Source: a virus. Taken from it: 37,664 bases of DNA. The notes below the pieces were generated by a model. The model was not told where the DNA came from, did not search any database, and worked only from the letters and a program-made list of their open reading frames with translations. Each line of letters starts with the position of its first letter. Position 1 is the first letter of the stretch. The stretch is from the UHGV virus genome UHGV-0120097. The stretch is one strand, 5' to 3'. Shown here in pieces: positions 2,752-28,447 of this stretch. The translations under genes were made by a program, and so were the position numbers.

Positions 2752-3360
2752 ATGAGTTTTTTAGAAGATGATTTAAAGATAGCAGTGGCAATGTTTGAAG
2801 CATTTGATTTACCAAAAATACCAATTCAAAAAGACATTAATGATTTTGGAGAAGAGGTTACTACTTATATATTAGGAGAATTTTTAGGTGTAAGAACAAC
2901 TAAAAAAATATATGCTTGTGGATTGAAATATGACTTAACATTAGTTTTAATAACTGAAAAAACATACGTAGAAGCAGCAAGAGTTTTGGGAAGGTATTAT
3001 GAAAAGTTTTTCTTAACAGAACAAGAGGTTATAGAAGAGTTATTCTATTTGAATAACTATATAATGAAAATTGATAGTGTTGAAAAACCATCAAAAGAAT
3101 ATTTAGATATATTAAAAAAATTACTTAAAAGAATAGATAAAGAACCTATTGAGTGTCCTTGGGGAGTTGCACCTATTATTGAAAAGAAAATAAAAGAGAT
3201 AGAAAGAGCTAAAAAAATTTCTGAAAGGTGTGATGAGTTGATAGCTAAAAACTTAGAAAAAAACAGAAGATATTATGATGGTTTGATTACACCAGCACCA
3301 AAAGATGAAATAGAAATAAAATTTTATGGAATGGGAGATGAAAAAAATGATGAATTATAG
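2752..3360 (+). CDS. hypothetical protein
   Basis: 202-aa ORF with SD aaagggggataatATG. Confidence 0.5.
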   Translation: MSFLEDDLKIAVAMFEAFDLPKIPIQKDINDFGEEVTTYILGEFLGVRTTKKIYACGLKYDLTLVLITEKTYVEAARVLGRYYEKFFLTEQEVIEELFYLNNYIMKIDSVEKPSKEYLDILKKLLKRIDKEPIECPWGVAPIIEKKIKEIERAKKISERCDELIAKNLEKNRRYYDGLITPAPKDEIEIKFYGMGDEKNDEL

Positions 3361-3985
3361 AAATATGCCACCTTATGGTGTTTGTGCCACTCCTTTTAAA
3401 ACTCTAAAAAAAATAAAAATAGAATCATTGGAAGATATTTTAAATTTAAAAGGTTATGAAGATGAAAGAGTTAAAATAATTGATATATTAGGAATAGAAA
3501 AAAAGAAAAAAGAAGTTGATGAAAAGAATATACTTGGCATAACCAAAAAGATAATCAAAGAAGTAATAGCAGTTGAACGTAGTATAGACATAAAATTATT
3601 AATTAAACCTACTGGAGAAACTTGCGTATATTCATTTATTAGCACAAGTGCATTAATTCATATGATGAAAGGAATATTTGAAAAATTATATTCTAATGAA
3701 GTCATTGGATTTACTGGTAGAAATGTTGCTAACTTTATAAGAAAAAATTTAGATAAAAAATTTATAATTTTAACTTCTTTAGAAAAGTTTACTAGAATTG
3801 GAGGAGTTTTTTGTGGTAATAGTTCCAAAGAAATTAAAACGGGAATAATCATTCCTAAAGAACATTACGAAGATGCAATAGCTGGGTTTAAAGAACAAGA
3901 GATTTATTTTACAAATATAATAGGTATGGAATATTCAGATGGAATATCAGATTGCCCAGGTGGTTCATTTTCTGATTGGGAGTAA
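3347..3985 (+). CDS. hypothetical protein
   Basis: ATG at 3347 preceded by ggaga. The track ORF starts at 3326 with no SD. Confidence 0.45.
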   Translation: MMNYRNMPPYGVCATPFKTLKKIKIESLEDILNLKGYEDERVKIIDILGIEKKKKEVDEKNILGITKKIIKEVIAVERSIDIKLLIKPTGETCVYSFISTSALIHMMKGIFEKLYSNEVIGFTGRNVANFIRKNLDKKFIILTSLEKFTRIGGVFCGNSSKEIKTGIIIPKEHYEDAIAGFKEQEIYFTNIIGMEYSDGISDCPGGSFSDWE

Positions 3986-4225
3986 TAAAAATGAAAGCAC
4001 TGAATAGAAAGAAGAAACCAAAACATCATAGTAAAGTAAAATATAAGGTTTATCCTAAAAGAAAAGGAATAGTAAGTATAACTAGAGAGTGCAGATGTAA
4101 AAAATTTAAAAATTGTTATCTTGTACCAAAACAATTTTTTCTAATTATTTTAACTACTAATAGGAAATCTAAAAAATATAAAAAAGTATCAAAACAAACC
4201 TATAAAAAAAAGTATTAAAAGTACA

Positions 4226-4254
4226 TTGTTTTTTATCTCTAAAAATAGTATAAT
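4226..4254 (+). promoter_or_regulatory. sigma70-like promoter for the recombinase gene (TTGTTT-17-TATAAT)
   Basis: -35 TTGTTT at 4226-4231, a 17-nt spacer, then -10 TATAAT at 4249-4254. Confidence 0.4.
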
Positions 4255-4308
4255 TATGGTATTAAGTGAAACGAACGACAGAATAAATACTAAAAGGAGA
4301 GATAAAAG

Positions 4309-5004
4309 ATGATATATGGTTATTGCAGAGTATCTACAAAAAAACAAAATATTTTAAGACAGGTGGAAAATATCATAAAGATATATCAAACTGCTAAAGT
4401 ATTTCAAGAATCATATACAGGAACTACAACAGATAGAAAAGAATGGAGTAAGCTAAAAAAAATAGTTAAACCTGGAGATACAATTATATTTGATTCTGTT
4501 AGTAGAATGAGTAGAAATGCAGAAGAGGGAATAAAAGAATATTTTAATTTTGTAGAAAGAGATATTGAACTTATATTTTTAAAAGAGGGATATATTAACA
4601 CAGCCCTTTATAAAAAAGCTTTAGAGAATAAAATAGATTCAACAGGAAATAAAATAGCTGATATATACATAGATGCAACCAATGAAGTATTAAAGATATT
4701 AGCTCAAGAACAAATTAAAATAGCATTTGACCAAGCTGAAAAGGAAGTATTAGACCTTAGAGAAAGAACAAAAGAGGGACTAAGAGTTACCAAAGCTAAA
4801 GGAACTGTATTAGGTAGAAAACAAGGAGATACTTATACTACCAAGAAAGAAAAGGAGATGAGAGAGAAAATAAAAAAACTAGCTAAAGATTTTGGAGGAA
4901 ATCTTAAAGATATAGAAGTCTTTACACTGCTAGGAATAACTAAGAATACATATTACAAGTATAAGAAAAATATTATACTAGAGGAGGCACAAAATGAGAA
5001 ATAA
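4309..5004 (+). CDS. small serine recombinase (resolvase/invertase family)
   Basis: N-terminal MIYGYCRVSTKKQ (the YxRVSTxxQ catalytic Ser motif), DSVSRMSRN, and a C-terminal HTH-like segment. Confidence 0.75.
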   Translation: MIYGYCRVSTKKQNILRQVENIIKIYQTAKVFQESYTGTTTDRKEWSKLKKIVKPGDTIIFDSVSRMSRNAEEGIKEYFNFVERDIELIFLKEGYINTALYKKALENKIDSTGNKIADIYIDATNEVLKILAQEQIKIAFDQAEKEVLDLRERTKEGLRVTKAKGTVLGRKQGDTYTTKKEKEMREKIKKLAKDFGGNLKDIEVFTLLGITKNTYYKYKKNIILEEAQNEK

Positions 5005-16998: not shown

Positions 16999-17018
16999 GA
17001 AAAGAGGTGTTTAAGCAA

Positions 17019-18386
17019 ATGTTAAATTTTAAAAAAGAGTATTTTAAGTTAGAAGAGAATAGACAACAGTATGCTACTAGCTTTTCAGACTTAATGACAA
17101 GTTGTGAAGTTTACGGAAAAAAACAAAATCCTATAACTAGCACAGCTTTTATATTCCTTATACCTAAAGATTATTACACATACAATGCTGGAAACATTGA
17201 TTTTACTAACTACCCAGATGGTATATGGAATGATTACACAGATATTAAGATAGTTAAGTCTGAACCTTATTTTGATTTAGATTTTACTTTTAGTAGTACA
17301 GGAGATATTACACCAGAAAATCTAAATAATATGTTTACTAAAATAAAAGCTGCAATACTTGGAACAGAAAAAGAAATTATAAAATCTCAATTATTTGTAG
17401 ATAGTGGAATACCCAAACAATTAGGTTTACCAGATTTACCAAAAGGTTCTATCTGGTATATGTCAGATGATGGGATAGCTACTTATCCTGTAACTACACT
17501 ATTTGAGAAATATCAAGAGTTGCTCAATAAGATTTATGAAGATACAAAAAAAATATTACTTGAAGATTTGGATAATAGAGTAAAAGAGCTAGTTATTCAA
17601 TTAGAAAAAGATTTAAAAGAAATTATTGATAATTATCTTAAAACAGATAGTTATTTAAAATTAGATAAATATACACAAGAAAAAATAGAAGAAGCAGAAA
17701 AAGAAATCCAAGATTATATAGACTATCATATGCAAGATTTAAAAGGAGAAAGAGGATACTCAATAGCAAGTGTTGGTTTTAATAAAGAATTACCAGAAGG
17801 AAACATCTATACAGTCTACCGTGAAGACGGAGAAATTATAGGAGAATTATTAGCACGAAGAGGTCCTCAAGGTATTCAAGGCAATGATGGACCAGAAGGA
17901 CCGAAAGGAGAGAGAGGAGAAAGAGGATTCAAAGGAGATAAAGGAGACCAAGGAGAAAGAGGGGAAAATGGACCTCAAGGTATTCAAGGAGAGCAAGGAA
18001 TACAAGGAGAAGTTGGACCTCAAGGTCCTCAAGGAATAACAGGTCCTCAAGGTATTCAAGGAATACAAGGGGAACAAGGCATTCAAGGAGAAAGAGGACT
18101 TCAAGGACTAAAAGGCGAACAAGGCATTCAAGGAATACAAGGAGAACAAGGACCTAAGGGAGAGCAGGGAGATATCGGACCTCAAGGTCCTCAAGGAATA
18201 CAAGGTCCTAAAGGAGATAAGGGAGATAAAGGAGATAATGGAACTGCTGTAATCACTCCTATAAATAGTCAGTACATATTCCAAATAGAAGATGGAAACT
18301 TAGTTGTATATTATAACGAGAATGATACTCAACCAAATTTTTCAATAGATGAAGATGGAAATTTAGTATTAGAAATTTTAGAATAA
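17019..18386 (+). CDS. collagen-like repeat tail fibre protein
   Basis: About 50 uninterrupted Gly-X-Y triplets ([13 protein letters not shown]...) between an N-terminal domain and a C-terminal beta-rich domain. ATG at 17019 after aaagaggtg. Confidence 0.65.
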
Positions 18387-18399
18387 GGAGGTTTTAATT

Positions 18400-19512
18400 A
18401 TGCCGAAATTAATTATAGGTAATGTTGTAGGTCCTCAAGGTCCTAAAGGAGAACAAGGAGATATCGGACCTCAAGGTCCTAAAGGAGAACAAGGAATACA
18501 AGGGGAACAAGGTATTCAAGGTTTACCTGGTGCAAAAGGAGAACAAGGAATACAAGGTCCTCAAGGTCCTAAGGGAGATACTGGAGAGCAAGGTATTCAA
18601 GGTCCTAAAGGAGATAAGGGAGATACTGGACCACAAGGTCCTCGAGGTCCTCAAGGTATTCAAGGACCTAAGGGAGATAAAGGGGAACAAGGTATAACTG
18701 GAAATACTGGTCCTAAAGGTCCTAAAGGAGATACTGGAGAGCAGGGTATTCAAGGTCCTAAAGGAGCTGATGGAGTAGGAGTAAAAAGTATAACATTTAA
18801 GAATACTAATGAAGATGGCGGAAATGTTTATACTGTGACTTTAACTAATGGTAGCACATATGATTTTACTGCCCCTAGAGGTCAACAAGGGATACCAGGA
18901 CAAAGCGGTCAACCTGGGACTACCGATTATGAAAAATTAATAAACAAACCAGATGTATATACTAAAACTGAAACTAATAATTTATTAGATGGTAAATTAG
19001 GTAAAGAAGATAAAGCAAAGAGTGCTACAACTGCTGATAGTGCTGGTGCTTGTACAGGGAACTCTGCTACTGCTACAAAATTACAAACTGCTAGAACTAT
19101 CAACGGAGTTAGTTATGATGGTAGTGCCAATATTACAATAGCTGATAATACAAAACTTCCAAAATCCGGTGGTACTATTAATGGAAACTTAACAGTAACA
19201 GGAGCTATTGTTTCAAACGGAGAAGTTACGGCTTATTCAGATAGAAGATTAAAAACTGATATAACAAAGATAACTAATGCTCTTAAAAAAGTAAATCAAA
19301 TCAATGGGTACACATTCACTATGTTAGGTACAGGACAAAGACAAGCTGGAGTTATAGCTCAAGAGATTGAAAAAGTATTGCCAGAAGTTGTGGTCAAAAA
19401 TGAGGACAATGGTTATTTAACTGTTATGTATGGACATATAGTAGCTTTACTTATTGAAGCTGTAAAAGAAATGAGTAAGGAAATAGAAGATTTAAAAGGG
19501 GGTAGGGTATAA
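18400..19512 (+). CDS. collagen-like tail fibre with C-terminal intramolecular chaperone (peptidase S74) domain
   Basis: GXY repeats; a tail-fibre repeat [25 protein letters not shown]; a C-terminal [11 protein letters not shown]...[20 protein letters not shown]...[20 protein letters not shown] typical of the self-cleaving S74 chaperone. Confidence 0.8.
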
Positions 19513-19916
19513 TGGCTATCACTATGAAAAATTTAAATGATAGAACATCAGCATTAGAGGGTAAAGCTTCAACTACTCCAATAACTATGAAAGGATTAGC
19601 TGATAGATTAGCAAATTTAGAAGCTACTGCTAAGAAATGGGAAGAGGCAACTCTTACTATCGGAACTGGTACAAATGTATATAACACTGTTAGTTTGCCA
19701 CTTCCACAAAATATAAAAAATATAGTTTCTGGAGCTAAAAGTTTAGCGACGGCCTCAGGAACAGTTCGTTGGTACACTAATGTTCGAGATGACACTGTAT
19801 CAGCTAATAGTGGCAGTATCAGAATAGATAATAATTATTTATACTATCAATTACGTCAAGGCTCTCGTAGCATAGCGAGTGGGGACATCACAATTAAATT
19901 GGTAGTATATAAATAA
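19512..19916 (+). CDS. small fibre-associated protein, paralog A (134 aa)
   Basis: Shares the N-terminal module (ALEGKA.TTPITMKGLADRLA..EATAK.W) with the 20729 gene, and the C-terminus diverges. Strong SD. Confidence 0.5.
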   Translation: MAITMKNLNDRTSALEGKASTTPITMKGLADRLANLEATAKKWEEATLTIGTGTNVYNTVSLPLPQNIKNIVSGAKSLATASGTVRWYTNVRDDTVSANSGSIRIDNNYLYYQLRQGSRSIASGDITIKLVVYK

Positions 19917-19931
19917 AATAAGGAGGTATAA

Positions 19932-20678
19932 ATGACAGTTTTTTATTATGATAAAGAAAAAGCAGAACAAGGAATACTATTTTGTTTAGGACAAGAAGAT
20001 AAAGTTCTTACTCAAGAAGAAATACAAGAACAAGGAAAATCAGAACTATATGAAAATGTAGTTACTTATACAGGAAATACAGTTCTAATAGGACACCCTA
20101 TTGTTGAGGGAGATACAGTTAGAAAAGCTACTGAAAAAGAACTTATAGATTTAGGCATAAAAGGACTAGAAGAGGGAGAAATACTTGAGGGGGATAATAT
20201 CAAGACAGTTGATAGACCTCAACCTTACCCAGAGGCTTACGAATGGCAAAATACTGCTTGGGTATTAAATCAAGATCTTTTACCAGATGGAGTATACCAT
20301 GATGGAAATAAATTTGTAGAGGTGCCTATACCAGATAACTATATAAAATATCACTGGGAAAGACCTAATTGGATAGATGATACTCAAGATATTGATAGAG
20401 TTGAAAAACAATATGCGGAATATTTAATCTTAAATAATCCATTAGATTGGTCAAAAATGGAAGAACAAGGAGTACTTGAAGATTACAAAACTTTTATGAA
20501 AGAAAATGAAGCTTATTTAGAAAGAGATTCTAAAGAGATAATTACACTAAGTAATATACCACAACCTAGTGAAAAGTTAACTTCTTTTTTCAGCAAAATA
20601 AAAAATCATAATTCTATTTCAATGGATAGAATGATAACAAAAAGTGTTATCTTAAACGGGGGGGGGAACAAAAACTAA
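19932..20678 (+). CDS. hypothetical protein (248 aa) ending in a G9 homopolymer
   Basis: SD aaggaggtataaATG. The last codons run through GGGGGGGGG at 20658-20666. Confidence 0.5.
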   Translation: MTVFYYDKEKAEQGILFCLGQEDKVLTQEEIQEQGKSELYENVVTYTGNTVLIGHPIVEGDTVRKATEKELIDLGIKGLEEGEILEGDNIKTVDRPQPYPEAYEWQNTAWVLNQDLLPDGVYHDGNKFVEVPIPDNYIKYHWERPNWIDDTQDIDRVEKQYAEYLILNNPLDWSKMEEQGVLEDYKTFMKENEAYLERDSKEIITLSNIPQPSEKLTSFFSKIKNHNSISMDRMITKSVILNGGGNKN

Positions 20679-20728
20679 TATTTAATCCTCTAAATAAAAA
20701 AATACAAAATAGAGCTAGTGTCATCACA

Positions 20729-21124
20729 ATGAGTAATCTAAATACTAGGATTGCTACATTAGAGGGCAAAGCTGCAACTACTCCAATAACTATGAAAGGA
20801 TTAGCTGATAGATTAGCTCAGGTGGAAGCTACTGCTAAAGATTGGGCTGTAGTTACACTAACAGGCACACAAACATCCCGATGGGCTATCCCTACGCAAT
20901 ATTTAAATGGATATAATTTTTATGTTGTTGGTTGGAGCGGGTTAAAAATGGGATCTTATTATGAACAAGAATATAGTAATAATAGAATAAACCATTATGT
21001 TACGAACGATGGGAGATATCGTTTTATCTATAAATTTGAAAGAAATGGTAATTATATACTATCTGTTAAAGAACAAAGTTCAAATCCTGTAATTGATAAT
21101 ATTACAGTAATGTTTTATAAATAA
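20729..21124 (+). CDS. small fibre-associated protein, paralog B (131 aa); no SD
   Basis: N-terminal module shared with the 19512 gene, with 43 nt identical. There is no recognisable RBS upstream of the ATG. Confidence 0.45.
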   Translation: MSNLNTRIATLEGKAATTPITMKGLADRLAQVEATAKDWAVVTLTGTQTSRWAIPTQYLNGYNFYVVGWSGLKMGSYYEQEYSNNRINHYVTNDGRYRFIYKFERNGNYILSVKEQSSNPVIDNITVMFYK

Positions 21125-21138
21125 GGAGTTGATAAATA

Positions 21139-21576
21139 ATGCAAACATCAGACAAAGGAATAGAATTCCTAATCAAAGAAGAAGGGGGAATAAGATTAAA
21201 AGCATATAAATGTCAAGCTGGCATCTTAACAATAGGAGTAGGTCACACTGGAAAAGATGTCAAAGAGGGAATGGAGATTACAGAGGAAAAAGCAATTGAG
21301 CTTTTAAAACTCGATTTAAGACGTTTTGAAGATGTAGTCAATAAAAATATCAATGTAACTTTAAAGCAACATGAATTTGACGCACTCATAAGCTTAGCTT
21401 TTAACATAGGGTGTGCAGCTTTCTCAAATTCAACCGTAGTTAAGAAAATAAATACGGGGGCAAAAATGTGCGAGGTAGAAGAAGCTTGGAAGATGTGGAG
21501 AAAAGGTGGAGGAAAAGTATTACCTATACTTGTAAGAAGAAGAGAAAGAGAAGTTAAGATGTATAAAGGAGAATGA
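21139..21576 (+). CDS. endolysin, GH24 (T4-lysozyme-like) muramidase
   Basis: GIEFLIKEEGGIRLKAYKCQAGILTIGVGHTG (catalytic Glu/Asp/Thr region) and EFDALISLAFNIG. Tandem stops TGA TAA. Confidence 0.85.
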   Translation: MQTSDKGIEFLIKEEGGIRLKAYKCQAGILTIGVGHTGKDVKEGMEITEEKAIELLKLDLRRFEDVVNKNINVTLKQHEFDALISLAFNIGCAAFSNSTVVKKINTGAKMCEVEEAWKMWRKGGGKVLPILVRRREREVKMYKGE

Positions 21577-21580
21577 TAAT

Positions 21581-21832
21581 TTGAATATTATAAATTCACT
21601 AATAGGAGTTCTAAAAGATACTCTAGGTATAATCTTTAAAAGGACTAGAAATGCCGAGGTAGACCAAGAGATAGAAAAGCAAAAACTAACAAGTTTTAAC
21701 TATTACCTTGGTACTGCCTTTATGATAATACTTTTATTGCTTATATTAGATAATATCTTAAATTTACAAATAACACCTTGGTTTTACAACATTTTCGAAA
21801 AGATACTAGACTATATGATAGGAGGAAATTAA
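21581..21832 (+). CDS. small membrane protein in the lysis cassette (TTG start)
   Basis: 83 aa with one hydrophobic helix (TAFMIILLLLILDNIL). Confidence 0.4.
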   Translation: MNIINSLIGVLKDTLGIIFKRTRNAEVDQEIEKQKLTSFNYYLGTAFMIILLLLILDNILNLQITPWFYNIFEKILDYMIGGN

Positions 21833-22388: not shown

Positions 22389-22646
22389 CTATTTTAATTT
22401 TAAATCAACCTTAAAATCAATTAAGTCAAAATAAAATATTTTATCTGTACTGTAATAACTTTCTGTATTTGCTTGGAACTCATCTAATTTTAAAGTAATA
22501 TCTCCAACAATAATTTTATATCCATCTTGTATGTCTATAATATCTAAAACTTCTACATCATTTTTAAAATATGTTATCAACCCATTTGTTATAGTTATAC
22601 TTTGAATATTTTCTCTATTTCCTTTTAATAAATCCTTTAATTTCAT
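22389..22646 (-). CDS. hypothetical protein
   Basis: 85-aa ORF, last gene of the minus-strand operon. Confidence 0.4.
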   Translation of the reverse strand: MKLKDLLKGNRENIQSITITNGLITYFKNDVEVLDIIDIQDGYKIIVGDITLKLDEFQANTESYYSTDKIFYFDLIDFKVDLKLK

Positions 22647-23311
22647 TAGCTCAACCCCTTTATCTTTTCTTTTAGTTCAGCCTTAACAGTTTTCAACTCT
22701 TTCAACTCTTCCTCTAATTTTCTGATTTTCGCCTCTACCTCCGATAGTCTGGATACCAGCTTATCTTTTTCAGATTCCTCTACTATCTCGGCATCTTCTA
22801 TTTCGAGCATGCTCGAAATAGCTTTCCTTATTTCTTTATCTGTTCTTATTCCAGAAGATAAAATATTCTCAAGTATTCTTACATTAACCTTTTTATTCAC
22901 TAAAGCTTTTACTTCTCTGTCTGAAAAATCTGAAATTAAATTGTTGTATTGTGGATAGCTTAAAGATAACTTATATCTCCCTCTAAGTAGTGATACTTGG
23001 TCTTTATTAAATCCTAAAGCTTGGTACCACTCCATATATGAACTTGGATTTTCAGAGTATCTATCAAATAGTTTTCTTGCCTCTTCCAAGTTTTGACCTA
23101 TTTGTAGTGCTAAAGAAGAGATATTTTCTTTTTTAGTGATAATACTTTTCTCAAATATAATTAATTGATTTTTATCATCATCTGAAAAATTTTCCAATTT
23201 GTTATAATCATATTTCAATATATCTTCTATATCATTTTTTTCTGGAATAATTACTTCTGTATTTTCTTTCTTTTTTAAAATTATAGGTTTTCTATTTATT
23301 TTTATTGCCAT
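22646..23311 (-). CDS. putative partition protein (ParB/centromere-binding partner of ParA)
   Basis: Lies immediately downstream of ParA and overlaps it by 10 nt. Charged coiled-coil C-terminus. No clear ParB box seen. Confidence 0.4.
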   Translation of the reverse strand: MAIKINRKPIILKKKENTEVIIPEKNDIEDILKYDYNKLENFSDDDKNQLIIFEKSIITKKENISSLALQIGQNLEEARKLFDRYSENPSSYMEWYQALGFNKDQVSLLRGRYKLSLSYPQYNNLISDFSDREVKALVNKKVNVRILENILSSGIRTDKEIRKAISSMLEIEDAEIVEESEKDKLVSRLSEVEAKIRKLEEELKELKTVKAELKEKIKGLS

Positions 23312-24060
23312 TTATTTAACAACTCCTTTGTAAGAGCTTTAAAATCCTTAGCCCCATTTGATGTAGAACTATATTCTATTATAAAATGTCCTGTCTGTGA
23401 GGCTTTAAATATTTTAAGATTATCTCTTATAGGAGTATCTAATATGTTATCAAAAGAATTTCTGACATCTTCAGTGGCTTCTAATATCTCTTTGTCATTT
23501 TGTAGCCTATTGATATAACCAAAATGAATGAATGGAGTGTTTAAATCCTTTTTAAGAGCTTGTATAAAGTTCTCTAATAATTCAAATCCTCTAAAACTAA
23601 ATAGATGAGCTTCAACAGGAGTGATAACATAATTACTGCACTTTAACACAGCCCTTTCTATTGCTCTCATATCTGGTCTACAATCTATAATTATATAGTC
23701 ATATTCTTGAAGTTGCTCTAGTCCCTTTTTTAAATCTAGGTAAATCATTTCCATATCAACACTGTCTTTTTTATATTCCAAGTCCTTTAAATTAAGACTT
23801 GCAGGTATTAAATCTAATATATGTTTTCCATCTCTTTCAATAGGAATTATATTTCCTTTTAAATCTTTCTCTTTTATAGCTCTAAAGATATTTTTTTCTT
23901 GGTCTGCTTCTATTAAACTTTCAGTTAGATTTTGTTGAAAGTCACAATCAATAAGCAAAACTTTTTTATTATGAACTAGAGATAGTACCCCAGCAACTTC
24001 TCTGGCACCAGTAGTCTTACCAGTGCCACCTTTTTCTGTTATGAATGATATTATTTTCAT
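23302..24060 (-). CDS. parA: ParA/Soj-family partition ATPase
   Basis: Deviant Walker A KGGTGKTT at the N-terminus (MKIISFITEKGGTGKTT). SD ataggggggtaaaATG. Confidence 0.8.
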   Translation of the reverse strand: MKIISFITEKGGTGKTTGAREVAGVLSLVHNKKVLLIDCDFQQNLTESLIEADQEKNIFRAIKEKDLKGNIIPIERDGKHILDLIPASLNLKDLEYKKDSVDMEMIYLDLKKGLEQLQEYDYIIIDCRPDMRAIERAVLKCSNYVITPVEAHLFSFRGFELLENFIQALKKDLNTPFIHFGYINRLQNDKEILEATEDVRNSFDNILDTPIRDNLKIFKASQTGHFIIEYSSTSNGAKDFKALTKELLNKWQ

Positions 24061-24069
24061 TTTACCCCC

Positions 24070-25194
24070 CTATATTAAATCCTTATATTTTTTTATATAC
24101 TCTCTTACTTCCTCTGGTTCATAACCAAAATCCTCTCCAGTAGCTTGATATATTTTCATAGCATTTTGATATTCTTCATTAGTTAGTGGAGTTGTTTTTT
24201 TCTTGACTACTGGCTCTTCAACTTCTTTTATTTTTTCTGCTTCCTTAGTTCTTCTTATAACTATTTTTCTTTTAGGTTTATTGATATTGTCCTCTATGAC
24301 TTTTACTAGGTAATTAAGACTTGTAAATTCTGTTTTAATTAAATCATAAGCAGCTTTCAATCCTTTTTCTAATTGTTCTTGGCTAAATTTATCTAAAAGT
24401 TTTATTATATTATCATCAGTCAAGAAAGGTTTTACAAATCTATTTTTCTCTGCTTTCTCAATAGCTGATAATAGCTCTTCTGAAATCTCTATTTCCTCTT
24501 CCTCTTCTATTGTTTCATCAACCTTGTTATCTTTCCAAGTAAACTCAAACCCACTTATAAATTTACCATCTTTTATTTTTTTTACTTTCAAACCTTCAAA
24601 ATATTGTGGTAACTCTTTCATAATAGGAGGCAATACTCTTTTGTTTATAACTGCTGTATCATAGCTTTCTGGAACTCCTAATTCTCTTCTGAAATCTTCA
24701 AGAGTTATAGTTACTTTTTTTATTTTATTCCACTTTTTCAAAATAGAATACATTAGTTGTGAATATCCAGATTTTAAATTAGAATATTCTATCAAAGCTT
24801 GAATTGTATAAGGAGCTTGTAAATGATTTAGCAAATATTTATAGTCTGGATTTATTCTTATTCTAACTGTTTTCTCTTTCTCATCTACTGAAAAGGTTGG
24901 AAACAAGACCATATTTGTAAATCCTTCATCTTTTCTTATTTGCATAACTTGTAATCTTAAAAGCTTATCACTTAATTCTTTTAAAAAGCTATAAATATTA
25001 TCTCCTTTTTTTCTTGCAGAATAATTTGCAATTTTTGAAATCTCTGAAACTTTAAAAGTTACAACTTCATCTTCCTGTTCCATAATCTTTAAACAAAGAG
25101 CTAAAAAAACTGCTCTTTCTTTTACTGAATAATTTTGTAATTGGAGATTATGGAAATCTTTATGATGTATTAGATTATATTTTTCTTGACTCAT
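24070..25194 (-). CDS. rep: Rep_3-family plasmid replication initiator
   Basis: Segments TIQALIEYSNLKSGYSQLMYSILKKW and ITLEDFRRELGVPESYDTAVINKRVLPPIMKEL match the Rep_3 initiator signature. An iteron array lies immediately upstream. Confidence 0.7.
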   Translation of the reverse strand: MSQEKYNLIHHKDFHNLQLQNYSVKERAVFLALCLKIMEQEDEVVTFKVSEISKIANYSARKKGDNIYSFLKELSDKLLRLQVMQIRKDEGFTNMVLFPTFSVDEKEKTVRIRINPDYKYLLNHLQAPYTIQALIEYSNLKSGYSQLMYSILKKWNKIKKVTITLEDFRRELGVPESYDTAVINKRVLPPIMKELPQYFEGLKVKKIKDGKFISGFEFTWKDNKVDETIEEEEEIEISEELLSAIEKAEKNRFVKPFLTDDNIIKLLDKFSQEQLEKGLKAAYDLIKTEFTSLNYLVKVIEDNINKPKRKIVIRRTKEAEKIKEVEEPVVKKKTTPLTNEEYQNAMKIYQATGEDFGYEPEEVREYIKKYKDLI

Positions 25195-25260
25195 ATATTC
25201 CCTCCAAAAATTTCACTAATTTTAGTATAACTTAATCAAAGGTACAATGTCAATATATAT

Positions 25261-25530
25261 GTACCTTTATTTTCTGGATTTTGTACCTTTATCTTTTTAA
25301 AATACTCTTTAAATCCTATTTACACTAGGTTTTTAACTATTATATAAATTTATAATAAAGGTACATCATTCTAATAAATGTCGTTAAAAGCACATTATAA
25401 AATATTTCGTACCTTTATAATTGGATTTTGTACCTCTATAATTGGATTTTGTACCTTTGAAAGTTGGATTTTGTACCTTTGTTTTCTGGATTTTGTACCT
25501 TTGAAAGTTGGATTTTGTACCTTTATCTTT
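25261..25530. repeat. iteron array (GGATTTTGTACCT, about 22-bp period, at least 5 tandem copies plus 2 more)
   Basis: Tandem copies start at 25423, 25443, 25465, 25487 and 25509. Additional copies lie at 25276 and partials near 25261 and 25408. Confidence 0.75.
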
Positions 25531-26495: not shown

Positions 26496-26513
26496 AAGAC
26501 CACCTCCATTTAA

Positions 26514-26557
26514 TTTTTAACAAGTCCCCCAAGTTCCTTGGGGAACCTATAAAAACT
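26514..26557 (-). repeat. 44-bp conserved element, copy A (7-3-7 palindrome CCCCAAG-TTC-CTTGGGG)
   Basis: Identical to copy C. Sits directly upstream of the RBS of the 26495 gene. Confidence 0.7.
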
Positions 26558-26560
26558 AAA

Positions 26561-27082
26561 TTATTTTATATATAAACTTGTACTTTGTTTAAGTTCTGCT
26601 CCTGGAACTTCTACCCCAGCCTTTAAAGCTTTTGAAATTTCAGTTTTTGAAATATCTTCAACATATTTTATTGTCTTAAATTCTGCAGGTATTTTGTCTT
26701 TGTCTATAAGCTCTACACTTGCAGGATTATTTTTTATTCCTATTATTCCAAAGATAGTATCTATTTTTTTTACTCCTATTCTTTCAAGAGTATATTTTAA
26801 AAAGTTTTTAAAATTTTTATCTTTATTCTCTAAAGATTTTTTTCTAGCTTCAAGCCTTTTTATTTCCTTGTCCAGCACTTCTATTTGTGCTTTATTATTT
26901 TGAAATACCTGTATAATTCTACCTGTTTTGCTGCTCAAATCTTGCTCTATTTCTTTTGTTAAAGCCTCTAAAGCTTCACACTCTTTTATCTCTCCTGTAT
27001 TCTCATCAATGGAATTTTCCCAAAGTTCATTTAATACTAATTTGTCCTCTAATAAATTCATTATATTTGCCATTAAAACCAC
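26561..27082 (-). CDS. siphovirus Gp157-like protein
   Basis: Coiled-coil centre; C-terminal ...KTEISKALKAGVEVPGAELKQSTSLYIK is typical of Gp157-family proteins found beside phage recombinases. Confidence 0.5.
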   Translation of the reverse strand: MVLMANIMNLLEDKLVLNELWENSIDENTGEIKECEALEALTKEIEQDLSSKTGRIIQVFQNNKAQIEVLDKEIKRLEARKKSLENKDKNFKNFLKYTLERIGVKKIDTIFGIIGIKNNPASVELIDKDKIPAEFKTIKYVEDISKTEISKALKAGVEVPGAELKQSTSLYIK

Positions 27083-27210: not shown

Positions 27211-27230
27211 AAAGACCACCTCCAATTTAA

Positions 27231-27274
27231 TTTTTAATAAGTACCCCAAGGCTCTTGGGGAACCTATAAAAACT
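27231..27274 (-). repeat. 44-bp conserved element, copy B (CCCCAAG-GCT-CTTGGGG)
   Basis: Stem conserved and loop changed. Homology extends through the RBS and the first codons of the downstream gene (about 80 bp shared with copy A). Confidence 0.7.
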
Positions 27275-27277
27275 AAA

Positions 27278-27523
27278 TTATTTATCAAAAACATTTTCAA
27301 GCATTTTGAAAAAGTCATCAATTTCTTTTTCTACTTTTTCATCTGCTACCCTAAAGCTATTAAAATCTAATTTTTTCTCATAACTTACTGGTTTTTCTCC
27401 TACATATCCAGCAACTATGTTTTTTTTAAGTTCTCCACTAAAGAAAACTATATTGTTTTTTATCTCCCAAGCTAAATTTTTAATACTGTATTTTTCTTTT
27501 AAATTCTCCATTACTGCTAACAT
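27278..27523 (-). CDS. hypothetical protein
   Basis: 81-aa ORF with SD. Confidence 0.45.
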   Translation of the reverse strand: MLAVMENLKEKYSIKNLAWEIKNNIVFFSGELKKNIVAGYVGEKPVSYEKKLDFNSFRVADEKVEKEIDDFFKMLENVFDK

Positions 27524-28046: not shown

Positions 28047-28057
28047 CCCCCCTTTAA

Positions 28058-28101
28058 GTTTTTAACAAGTCCCCCAAGTTCCTTGGGGAACCTATAAAAA
28101 C
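28058..28101 (-). repeat. 44-bp conserved element, copy C
   Basis: Upstream of the RBS of the 28046 micro-ORF. Confidence 0.7.
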
Positions 28102-28105
28102 TTAA

Positions 28106-28447
28106 CTATGCTATCGCTTGTAGGTTGCTTCCTTGTACTCTTTGCCAACCATATTTTTGTTTTAACTCTTCATAATCTCCCTTGAATGTTCCTTTTCCTT
28201 TTTTCTCTCCAAAGTACCATTTTTTTCTTTTAGCACTCCATCTAAAACCAAGTTCTTTTAACTGTTCCTTGTATAAGAAAGTATTACCAGATACCCATAT
28301 CCAAGAGCCTACAACATCAATCTCTAAACCATGGAAATGTATTATTTTCTTTAGTATCTCCATAACCTCTGGAGCTATCTCTTCCCCTGCTTCCCTTGCT
28401 TGTTGTTTAAATCCCTCAAGTTGTATTCTTTCATACTCTGCCATCAT
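28106..28447 (-). CDS. hypothetical protein
   Basis: 113-aa ORF. Confidence 0.45.
   Translation of the reverse strand: MMAEYERIQLEGFKQQAREAGEEIAPEVMEILKKIIHFHGLEIDVVGSWIWVSGNTFLYKEQLKELGFRWSAKRKKWYFGEKKGKGTFKGDYEELKQKYGWQRVQGSNLQAIA

Follow-up and report, generated by a model that had tools for sequence, protein, structure and literature searches.

A poly-G tract at a domain junction in the tail-fibre module of an uncultured gut phage-plasmid, a probable contingency locus

Described switches of phage tail proteins

Several mechanisms that switch phage tail proteins have been described. In the Campylobacter Fletchervirus phages, tracts of 7-11 G residues make receptor-binding proteins phase-variable, according to bioRxiv 10.1101/2025.10.21.683753 and PMC10579305, which both cite Sorensen et al. 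2021 (Cell Rep 35:109214). A similar element is present in the virus genome UHGV-0120097, a stretch of 37,664 nt that was analysed as a whole and is called the window below, where nine consecutive G residues (G9; plus strand, 20658-20666) lie at the end of a gene of 248 codons and upstream of an open reading frame (ORF) of 131 codons that encodes a putative knob. As in Fletchervirus, an uninterrupted G homopolymer of the ~7-11-nt type is found inside the coding frame of a gene of the tail or receptor-binding module, and changes in its length shift the frame. The two systems also differ: the Fletchervirus tract toggles a whole receptor-binding protein, whereas the window tract would add or omit a C-terminal knob on a protein that is always made; the window lineage is an uncultured ~37-kb human-gut phage-plasmid (Rep3, ParA, podovirus-like terminase) with a probably non-Campylobacter host; its relatives combine poly-G with (GA)n repeats; and the evidence given here comes from sequences alone. 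Moreover, a phenotypically mixed population is known for Fletchervirus, whereas the mixing of the population at the window locus is proposed from genomes. Poly-G tracts are reportedly found in many other phage genera, as seen in a genome survey. To our knowledge, phase variation of phage tail proteins driven by repeats has been demonstrated experimentally in the Campylobacter Fletchervirus phages only. Since the poly-G receptor-binding genes of Fletchervirus are established, the switching principle is already known; what is new is that the carrier is an uncultured phage-plasmid of the gut, probably from outside the Campylobacter phages, that the layout is of the fusion type, with the tract at a domain junction of a protein resembling tail-fibre assembly (Tfa) chaperones, and that the natural evidence is population-scale, with several repeat types gating paralogous knobs in sister phages.

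Bacterial contingency loci are simple-sequence repeats, poly-G/C among them, within genes for surface structures in Campylobacter, Neisseria, Haemophilus and Helicobacter. The window locus shares with them a presumed slipped-strand mispairing in a reading frame and a length polymorphism among otherwise identical genomes, but it is encoded by a phage-plasmid. The contingency loci of phages T2 and T4 are short runs (6 nt or more) of A/T type in many gene classes (bioRxiv 10.1101/2025.10.21.683753), and coliphage tail-fibre genes are depleted in such repeats (section 8 of the same preprint). Unlike the T2/T4 loci, the window repeat is long, unique in its genome and located inside the tail module.

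In the Mu G segment and the P1 C segment, inversion by a serine invertase exchanges two alternative fibre C-termini, which recognise the host, and gives progeny of mixed host ranges. There too the switch alters the C-terminal part of a tail-fibre-module protein, and the Mu and P1 segments adjoin a gene for a Tfa-type chaperone; the window, however, uses a homopolymer frameshift that adds or omits one C-terminus. The conserved domain of the Mu-type tail-fibre assembly chaperones is DUF4376, as stated in PMC7882524, summarising North et al. 2019, and the domain is also present in the gp27 chaperone of Alteromonas phage V22 (PMC7289586). Like the genes of TfaMu/U and V22 gp27, the window gene lies downstream of fibre or tip genes, and the N-terminal ~148 aa of its product are shared with DUF4376-bearing sister proteins; unlike TfaMu/U, the 248-aa protein lacks DUF4376 and has an unrelated helical segment as its C-terminal half. 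We know of no DUF4376-family chaperone that carries a phase-variable knob. The last comparison is with the G/GT pair of phage lambda, where a fixed slippery heptamer between the tail-tube and tape-measure genes sets the product ratio. Both loci lie in a phage tail region and specify short and C-terminally extended products from one start by means of the -1 frame, but the window site changes length in the DNA and sits in a module close to fibre and lysis genes.

The tract, its reading frames and its states in relatives

The G9 tract (GGGGGGGGG) is the sole run of more than five G residues in the window, where 13 G5 runs and none of intermediate length are found. At the base composition of the window (G+C 30%, G 17.4%), dinucleotide-preserving shuffles contained a G9 in 4 of 100 cases (mean 0.05 per shuffle), which agrees with an earlier, sequence-only reading that had picked out the tract as an outlier at the end of the 248-aa gene. 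In the window sequence (...TTAAAC GGGGGGGGG AACAAAAACTAA...) the 3' end of the 19932-20678 ORF reads AAC GGG GGG GGG AAC AAA AAC TAA, the 248-aa product ends in ...NGGGNKN, and the stop stands at 20676-20678, as that reading had placed it. Read in the frame used by the gene downstream (coordinate mod 3 = 2), the codons from 20657 are CGG GGG GGG GAA CAA, encoding R G G E Q K L I F N P L N K K I Q N R A S V I T, after which follows ATG 20729; this is the -1 frame, and it is free of stops from 20630 to the stop at 21124. In the window context G10 would yield 245 + 21 + 131 = 397 aa and G8 a short tail ending in ...NGGGTKTNI, and a -1 slip on G9 would produce a protein identical to that of the G10 allele. 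The ORFs are fused when the G residues and the following A (or AG) before CAAAAAC add up to a multiple of three, which holds for G10+AA, G9+AAA, G8+A and G10+AG, and not for G9+AA (the window), G11+AA and G9+A. Tract length thus separates a knob-bearing protein of ~45 kDa from a stump of 28 kDa.

These alternatives occur among the relatives of the window, which are phage contigs from human-gut metagenomes and represent consensus assemblies. An IMG/VR contig (L001) with 5 differences in 1,600 nt around the tract has G10 and one uninterrupted ORF of 397 aa that contains the linker as predicted, so the fusion of the 248-aa and 131-aa ORFs through 21 residues, expected from a +1 change, exists in nature. 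A search of 5.8 billion proteins returned fused proteins of 397 aa (P0001, P0028, P0035, P0037), and P0039 (396 aa) and P0002 (395 aa) are fused as well. Unfused proteins of 248 aa end in ...NGGGNKN or ...NGGGDKN, those of 250 aa in ...NGGGTKTNI or ...NGGGAKTNI, and one class of 251 aa in ...NGGGGTKTNI; the short tail foreseen for a -1 change is therefore also realised. In the DNA the states G8+A, G9+A, G9+AA, G9+AAA, G10+AA, G10+AG and G11+AA were found, with G10+AC deduced from proteins P0047, P0051 and P0054, so that length changes between G8 and G11 switch between ORFs of 395-397 aa and of 245-251 aa. When genomes were picked through the adjacent lysozyme protein, that is, blind to the state of the tract, 5 of 10 encoded the fusion, 4 the 248-aa form and one the 251-aa form, in distinct places and from differing cohorts and assemblers.

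The tract varies far faster than its surroundings. Four genomes with identical flanks (0 differences in 1,600 nt) carry G9 (L019, L023), G10 (L024) and G11 (L027), whereas the control runs of the region, two A7 (one of them at 20696-20702) and four G5, were invariant in every locus that contains them. Samples likewise differ in their consensus state: ERZ27271538 and ERZ19694882 have G9, ERZ27316054 and ERZ19694822 have G10, and ERZ28639791 has G11. The frame that leads from the tract to the knob ATG was open in 29/29 loci, as proposed for the gap from the window sequence, and the long tract is kept with different knob alleles (P0002/L049). Scans of the DNA for tract variants by pattern gave one locus each in IMG/VR and in the Joint Genome Institute (JGI) metagenome set, exact-protein look-ups being more productive. 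In one locus (L044, 1076-1090; three samples) the tract is interrupted, GGGGGGGGG T G AACAAAAAC, with a TGA right after NGGG, which may represent a tract-eroding substitution or a sequencing error.

The gene upstream of the tract (19932-20678, plus strand) has a strong Shine-Dalgarno (SD) sequence (AAGGAGGTA, -12.1 kcal/mol). Its product, the predicted OFF form, will be called the N-module; residues 1-225 constitute a confident predicted domain, with a predicted local distance difference test score (pLDDT) of 85-94 in an AlphaFold2 (AF2) model of the fusion, in which the linker is disordered and the knob less certain. Neither Pfam nor the PHROGs gave a match to the 248-aa protein. Its first ~148 aa are common to sister proteins of 275-304 aa, 7 of the 26 members of the N-module family have DUF4376 in their C-terminal half, and the best viral fold match of the N-module is a DUF4376 protein. 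The gene directly downstream of a fibre or tip gene is the one for the N-module family protein in the window and in L002, L006, L009 and L050-L053, all with the order fibre (Peptidase_S74), knob, N-module family protein, lysis genes. Since the C-terminal DUF4376 domain itself is lacking in the 248-aa protein, this is termed Tfa-like by its neighbourhood and shared N-domain, and not as a member of the family. A relationship of its C-terminal half to DUF4376 was considered and rejected (hhalign probability 0.2%).

The 21-codon linker (EQKLIFNPLNKKIQNRASVIT; 20666-20728, plus strand) is read in the fused frame only and is almost unchanged in the 29 relatives; in the window it comprises the last codons of the 248-aa gene and what appears as an 'intergenic' gap. 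It is seen in the fused proteins P0001, P0002, P0028, P0035, P0037 and P0039, and the peptides derived from it are EQKLIFNPLNK, IQNR and ASVITMSNLNTR. The 131-aa knob ORF (20729-21124, plus strand), predicted to form the C-terminal part of the ON fusion, encodes two N-terminal helices (TTPITMKGLADRLAQVEATAKDW) and an eight-strand beta-sandwich and ends in ...MFYK; nothing significant was obtained for it in Pfam or PHROGs. Modelled alone by AF2 from a 39-sequence alignment, it has the same two helices and eight strands with a pLDDT of 81.5, and its fold matches are weak only. The knob family (42 members) combines a conserved helix, TTPITMKGLxDRLxNLEATAKKW, with a hypervariable sandwich ending in FYK. 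A conserved helix followed by a hypervariable sandwich is the usual pattern of receptor-binding tips, and context, fold and family variability together suggest that the knob is probably such a tip. The tail-fibre assignment made from the window sequence goes somewhat far for the two proteins themselves, whose role is read from context and fold.

The knob ORF is poorly equipped for translation of its own. Upstream of ATG 20729 the strongest anti-SD pairing amounts to -2.3 kcal/mol, most genes having about -8 to -14, and by this measure no convincing ribosome-binding site (RBS) is present; the ATG is moreover base-paired within a hairpin, the sole notable one of the region (20728-20760; the fold of 20667-20760 has -13.2 kcal/mol, z -3.1 against shuffles), which would further lower independent initiation. 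The sequence-only reading had gone further and called this the only sizeable gene without an SD. Its weakness in this respect held, its uniqueness did not: a few other listed ORFs are also near 0, and uniqueness is not assertable because their starts are doubtful, being the first possible start after a stop.

In a more distant phage of the same size class (L028-L030) the N-module is 41% identical and a G10 occupies the same junction. Its -1 frame has ~175 knob-domain codons after the tract, of which the first ~100 include neither ATG nor GTG nor TTG, and this junctional knob domain, having no start codon, can therefore be produced as a fusion only. Three repeat-gated knob genes stand in series in L028, and also in L029 and L030. 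In L028 the first (2563-2980) has a 5' G9 (2589-2597) a few codons past a good SD and ATG, with a stop after 12 codons; the second (3001-4261) has the junctional G10 (3727-3736) with the start-less knob domain; and the third (4286-4756) has (GA)14 (4311-4338) a few codons past its SD and ATG. As contigs, L029 terminates within the GA repeat and L030 begins with the G9. In-frame ON versions of the 5'-gated knob genes are known as P0083, P0084, P0088, P0095 and P0096, and examples of in-frame N-termini in the 42-member knob family are MINKQIRVGGGVNRSTPIDL... and MINKQVKSSERERERES.... A second knob was never found in the tract-free relatives (N-module types of 224 aa and 235 aa, and the 283-aa DUF4376 type); tract and appended knob therefore go together. 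A further G10 was observed in a myovirus-like prophage with Baseplate_J and Mu Gp48 (L033, 2325-2334), 30 codons into a 251-aa gene, in frame (...FDNGGGEKY...) and beside a 226-aa N-module family member; further tail modules, in phages with which this N-module family is shared, are therefore also gated by poly-G.

A proposed contingency locus and the alternatives to it

With a probability of roughly 0.7, we regard the G9 tract as a contingency locus of the slipped-strand kind, by which a tail-fibre-associated protein gains or loses a C-terminal knob; the tract lies at a domain junction within what is functionally one gene. During replication of the phage DNA, as plasmid-prophage or in the lytic cycle, slipped-strand mispairing would gain or lose G residues, presumably in a reversible manner. 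In the ON state translation would start from the strong RBS at 19932 and proceed through the tract and the 21-residue linker into the 131-aa ORF, giving a product of 395-397 aa composed of N-module, linker, helical stalk and beta-sandwich knob. In the OFF state it would stop a few codons past the tract and give the N-module alone (245-251 aa), and the knob ORF would be made poorly or not at all, because it has no SD and its ATG is buried in a hairpin. The phage population would then be a mix of virions with and without the second knob, most likely an alternative receptor-binding tip on the Tfa-like fibre-associated protein, and such mixed virions may hedge bets on variation of the host surface. 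Of the two mechanisms that the sequence-only reading had left side by side, a slipped-strand and a programmed-frameshift switch, phase variation at the level of the DNA is the one supported by these data; programmed ribosomal frameshifting is neither needed nor supported.

Several points weigh against this explanation. The length variation was seen between consensus assemblies and not among the reads of one population, and all sequences are metagenomic short-read assemblies, in which homopolymers of 9-11 are error-prone. Logan contigs from four SRA runs (SRR28284004, SRR11412673, SRR28426777, SRR28282589) end inside the tract, which fits true heterogeneity but equally poor read quality. From the base frequencies of the window, a linker of ~23 codons is estimated to be open by chance about once in ten cases. 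One clade (L009-L017) is OFF throughout (G9+A), several of its members being the same strain in related samples, and two scans of species-representative genomes did not find the host.

If the locus does act as a contingency switch, repeat-driven tail phase variation would extend to an unrelated and apparently common human-gut phage-plasmid lineage, both proteins next to the tract being listed in >150 blocks each of the assembly collection, and a repeat could act through module fusion, beyond plain on/off switching. The host range of gut phages is usually inferred from the genome, where a one-base change in length may be mistaken for an assembly error or a pseudogene and where annotation pipelines break such genes in two; host-range prediction and phage-therapy design that are blind to the tract would fail for some members of the population. 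Given a host, the large number of naturally occurring ON and OFF genomes would offer a ready-made experiment.

A wider possibility, put forward tentatively and held with clearly less confidence than the contingency locus itself, is that the tract forms one element of a combinatorial, repeat-gated knob repertoire in human-gut phage-plasmids, possibly of Fusobacteriaceae. Knobs may be switched independently by 5' poly-G, by junctional poly-G, which would graft a knob onto the Tfa-like fibre-cap protein, and by (GA)n. A single lysogen would in that case release up to 2^n virion types, and the chaperone-like N-module would also serve to carry a phase-variable adhesin, a layout that, as far as we know, has not been described for phage contingency loci.

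The most serious rival of the contingency locus, although an unlikely one, is a non-adaptive hotspot: the poly-G of an accessory 397-aa gene would break often, mostly as one-way losses, and the window copy would be decaying. About half or more of the sampled genomes are out of frame, the clade L009-L017 entirely; eroded or interrupted tracts exist (G9+AAA in L021, G9TG in L044, and the G10+AC deduced from P0047, P0051 and P0054); and many relatives live without a second knob. Against this rival, a long uninterrupted tract is kept at the junction down to 41% protein identity and across different knob alleles, and linker and knob ORF are intact and open in all OFF genomes. The ON state is moreover reached through several length combinations (G8+A, G10+AA, G10+AG), which suggests that the frame has been restored repeatedly, and sister phages gate other knob genes by 5' repeats, the classic layout of a selected switch.

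Programmed recoding is improbable. A -1 ribosomal frameshift on G GGG GGG, or slippage of RNA polymerase, would let G9 yield both proteins in a set ratio, and a -1 slip on G9 does give the same protein as the G10 allele, with a downstream ORF that lacks an SD. GGG should be a rare codon in a genome of 30% G+C, and homopolymers of at least 9 are known for transcriptional slippage, mostly as A/T runs. The site formally fits X XXY YYZ, but a conserved, fixed slippery heptamer is not what is found: tract length differs among flank-identical genomes, whereas a recoding site keeps its sequence; many alleles need no shift, since their fusion lies in the zero frame; and G9+A and G11+AA would require a shift of +1 or -2. 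No stimulatory RNA was detected 5-9 nt downstream, the first 21 nt 3' of the tract being unpaired, with neither stem-loop nor pseudoknot, in the minimum-free-energy and centroid folds, and the only notable hairpin, that at the ATG, is ~60 nt away. The locus also lies outside the tail-chaperone slot between tube and tape-measure genes. In OFF genomes, recoding may still contribute a small amount of the fusion.

Still less credit is given to a sequencing or assembly artefact, by which one true length would exist everywhere and the differences would be homopolymer errors. The data are wholly metagenomic assemblies, poly-G is a known problem sequence and several Logan contigs end inside the tract. 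Each of the states recurs, however, across independent cohorts and across assemblers (MEGAHIT k119/k141, SPAdes NODE contigs, IMG, Logan), and contig coverage reaches ~34-315x, so that the consensus should give the majority length. Nearby A7 and G5 runs never vary, substitutions adjacent to the tract keep or change the frame (G8+A, G9+AAA, G10+AG), and the relative with 41% identity has a junctional tract as well.

That the window simply holds two ordinary genes, the 131-aa protein being made from its own ATG (leaderless-like, by reinitiation or independently of an SD) and the fusions being incidental, is hardly credible: gene callers annotate the 131-aa protein in many genomes and ATG 20729 falls at the position of the internal Met5 of a 134-aa paralogue, but a usable SD is absent and the ATG lies in a hairpin, homology with the paralogue begins 6 nt upstream of that ATG, within the linker, with the true start codon of the paralogue turned into AGT, the equivalent domain of L028 has no start codon at all, and the fusion is present in half of the genomes sampled without regard to tract state.

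Neighbouring genes, replicon and host

The tract stands in a module that is defined by the fibre gene upstream (18400-19512, plus strand). This gene encodes a collagen-repeat tail fibre whose C-terminus is a Peptidase_S74 intramolecular chaperone, and it is preceded by the gene of another collagen-repeat tail-fibre protein (17007-18386, plus strand). The stop of the fibre gene with Peptidase_S74 overlaps the start of a stand-alone knob gene (19512-19916, plus strand), which encodes the 134-aa paralogue of the 131-aa ORF, has an SD of its own and is not gated by a repeat. Against PF16532 Phage_tail_NK (the Sf6-type tail needle knob) the 134-aa protein scored below threshold (16 bits, cut-off 27, E 0.0096), and the 131-aa protein gave no match to this family. 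The two knob genes have in common a 5' part that codes for the helices and forms a direct repeat of 124 nt, 82% identical (19518-19641 and 20723-20846, plus strand). Downstream of the knob ORF lies a T4-type phage lysozyme (21139-21576, plus strand), the tract-neutral probe of the sampling described above, and a holin gene is also found in the neighbourhood.

A second repeat-length polymorphism, in frame, was observed in the module: the collagen-like Gly-X-Y arrays (17862-18243 and 18421-18775) vary in length among near-identical genomes, the second fibre having 370 aa in the window, 316 aa in L001, L021 and L026, and 331 aa in L035. Exchange of cassettes is also apparent, since the identical 134-aa knob is accompanied by one of two cassettes (window 20280-21576 versus L002 4440-5276 and L034-L043), with a break point after about residue 148 of the N-module. 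The first consists of the 248-aa type C-terminal half, the G tract, the 131-aa knob and the T4-type lysozyme; the second, which is tract-free, has a 283-aa protein with a DUF4376 C-terminal half and a different, 134-aa endolysin. The assembly of N-module, tract, knob and lysozyme also occurs on two longer contigs, L006 (114 kb) and L011 (124 kb), in another gene neighbourhood (upstream a gene of 193 aa, downstream genes of 109/127, 99, 174 and 601 aa), and therefore either moves between phage backbones or belongs to a larger element.

The window itself looks like a complete ~37-kb uncultured phage-plasmid. Genes for plasmid replication and partition and genes for the virion are joined on one replicon, and related contigs cluster at 36.5-38 kb. 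The maintenance module (22646-25530) comprises a Rep3 replication initiator (24070-25194, minus strand), five 22-nt iterons (TGGATTTTGTACCTTT..., 25253-25529, including those at 25421-25529), a ParA partition protein (23302-24060) and a probable ParB-like gene of 221 aa (22646-23311). The virion genes cover a podovirus-like terminase, tail, fibre and lysis functions, and the terminase is 25-27% identical to those of Vibrio, Pelagibacter and Stenotrophomonas podophages. The region 18400-21600 had no match by megablast among 50,697 phage records, the 1,633-aa protein none in plasmids, and 185,579 species-representative genomes, scanned with the 248-aa protein and then with the family alignment, held no copy. 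Matches of ParA and holin in plasmids were taxonomically uninformative. The nearest relatives of Rep3 are plasmid initiators of Cetobacterium somerae and Fusobacterium varium (35-41%), and the one named homologue that a large protein collection yielded belongs to a metagenome-assembled genome of Cetobacterium sp. (45%); the host is thus possibly one of the Fusobacteriaceae, with Rep3 as the sole pointer and a G+C of 30% that fits.

Two further features of the replicon were recorded. A serine recombinase of the DNA-invertase type (4309-5004; phrog_125, E 1e-35) may serve as a plasmid resolvase; a switch of the fibre genes driven by an invertase was considered and rejected, no suitable inverted repeats being found to flank the fibre genes. 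Upstream of minus-strand early genes, an intergenic element of 67 nt is present in three copies that are 84-88% identical (26503-26569, 27220-27286 and 28048-28114) and contain the palindrome CCCCAAG..CTTGGGG; these are probably a repeated operator, promoter or terminator.

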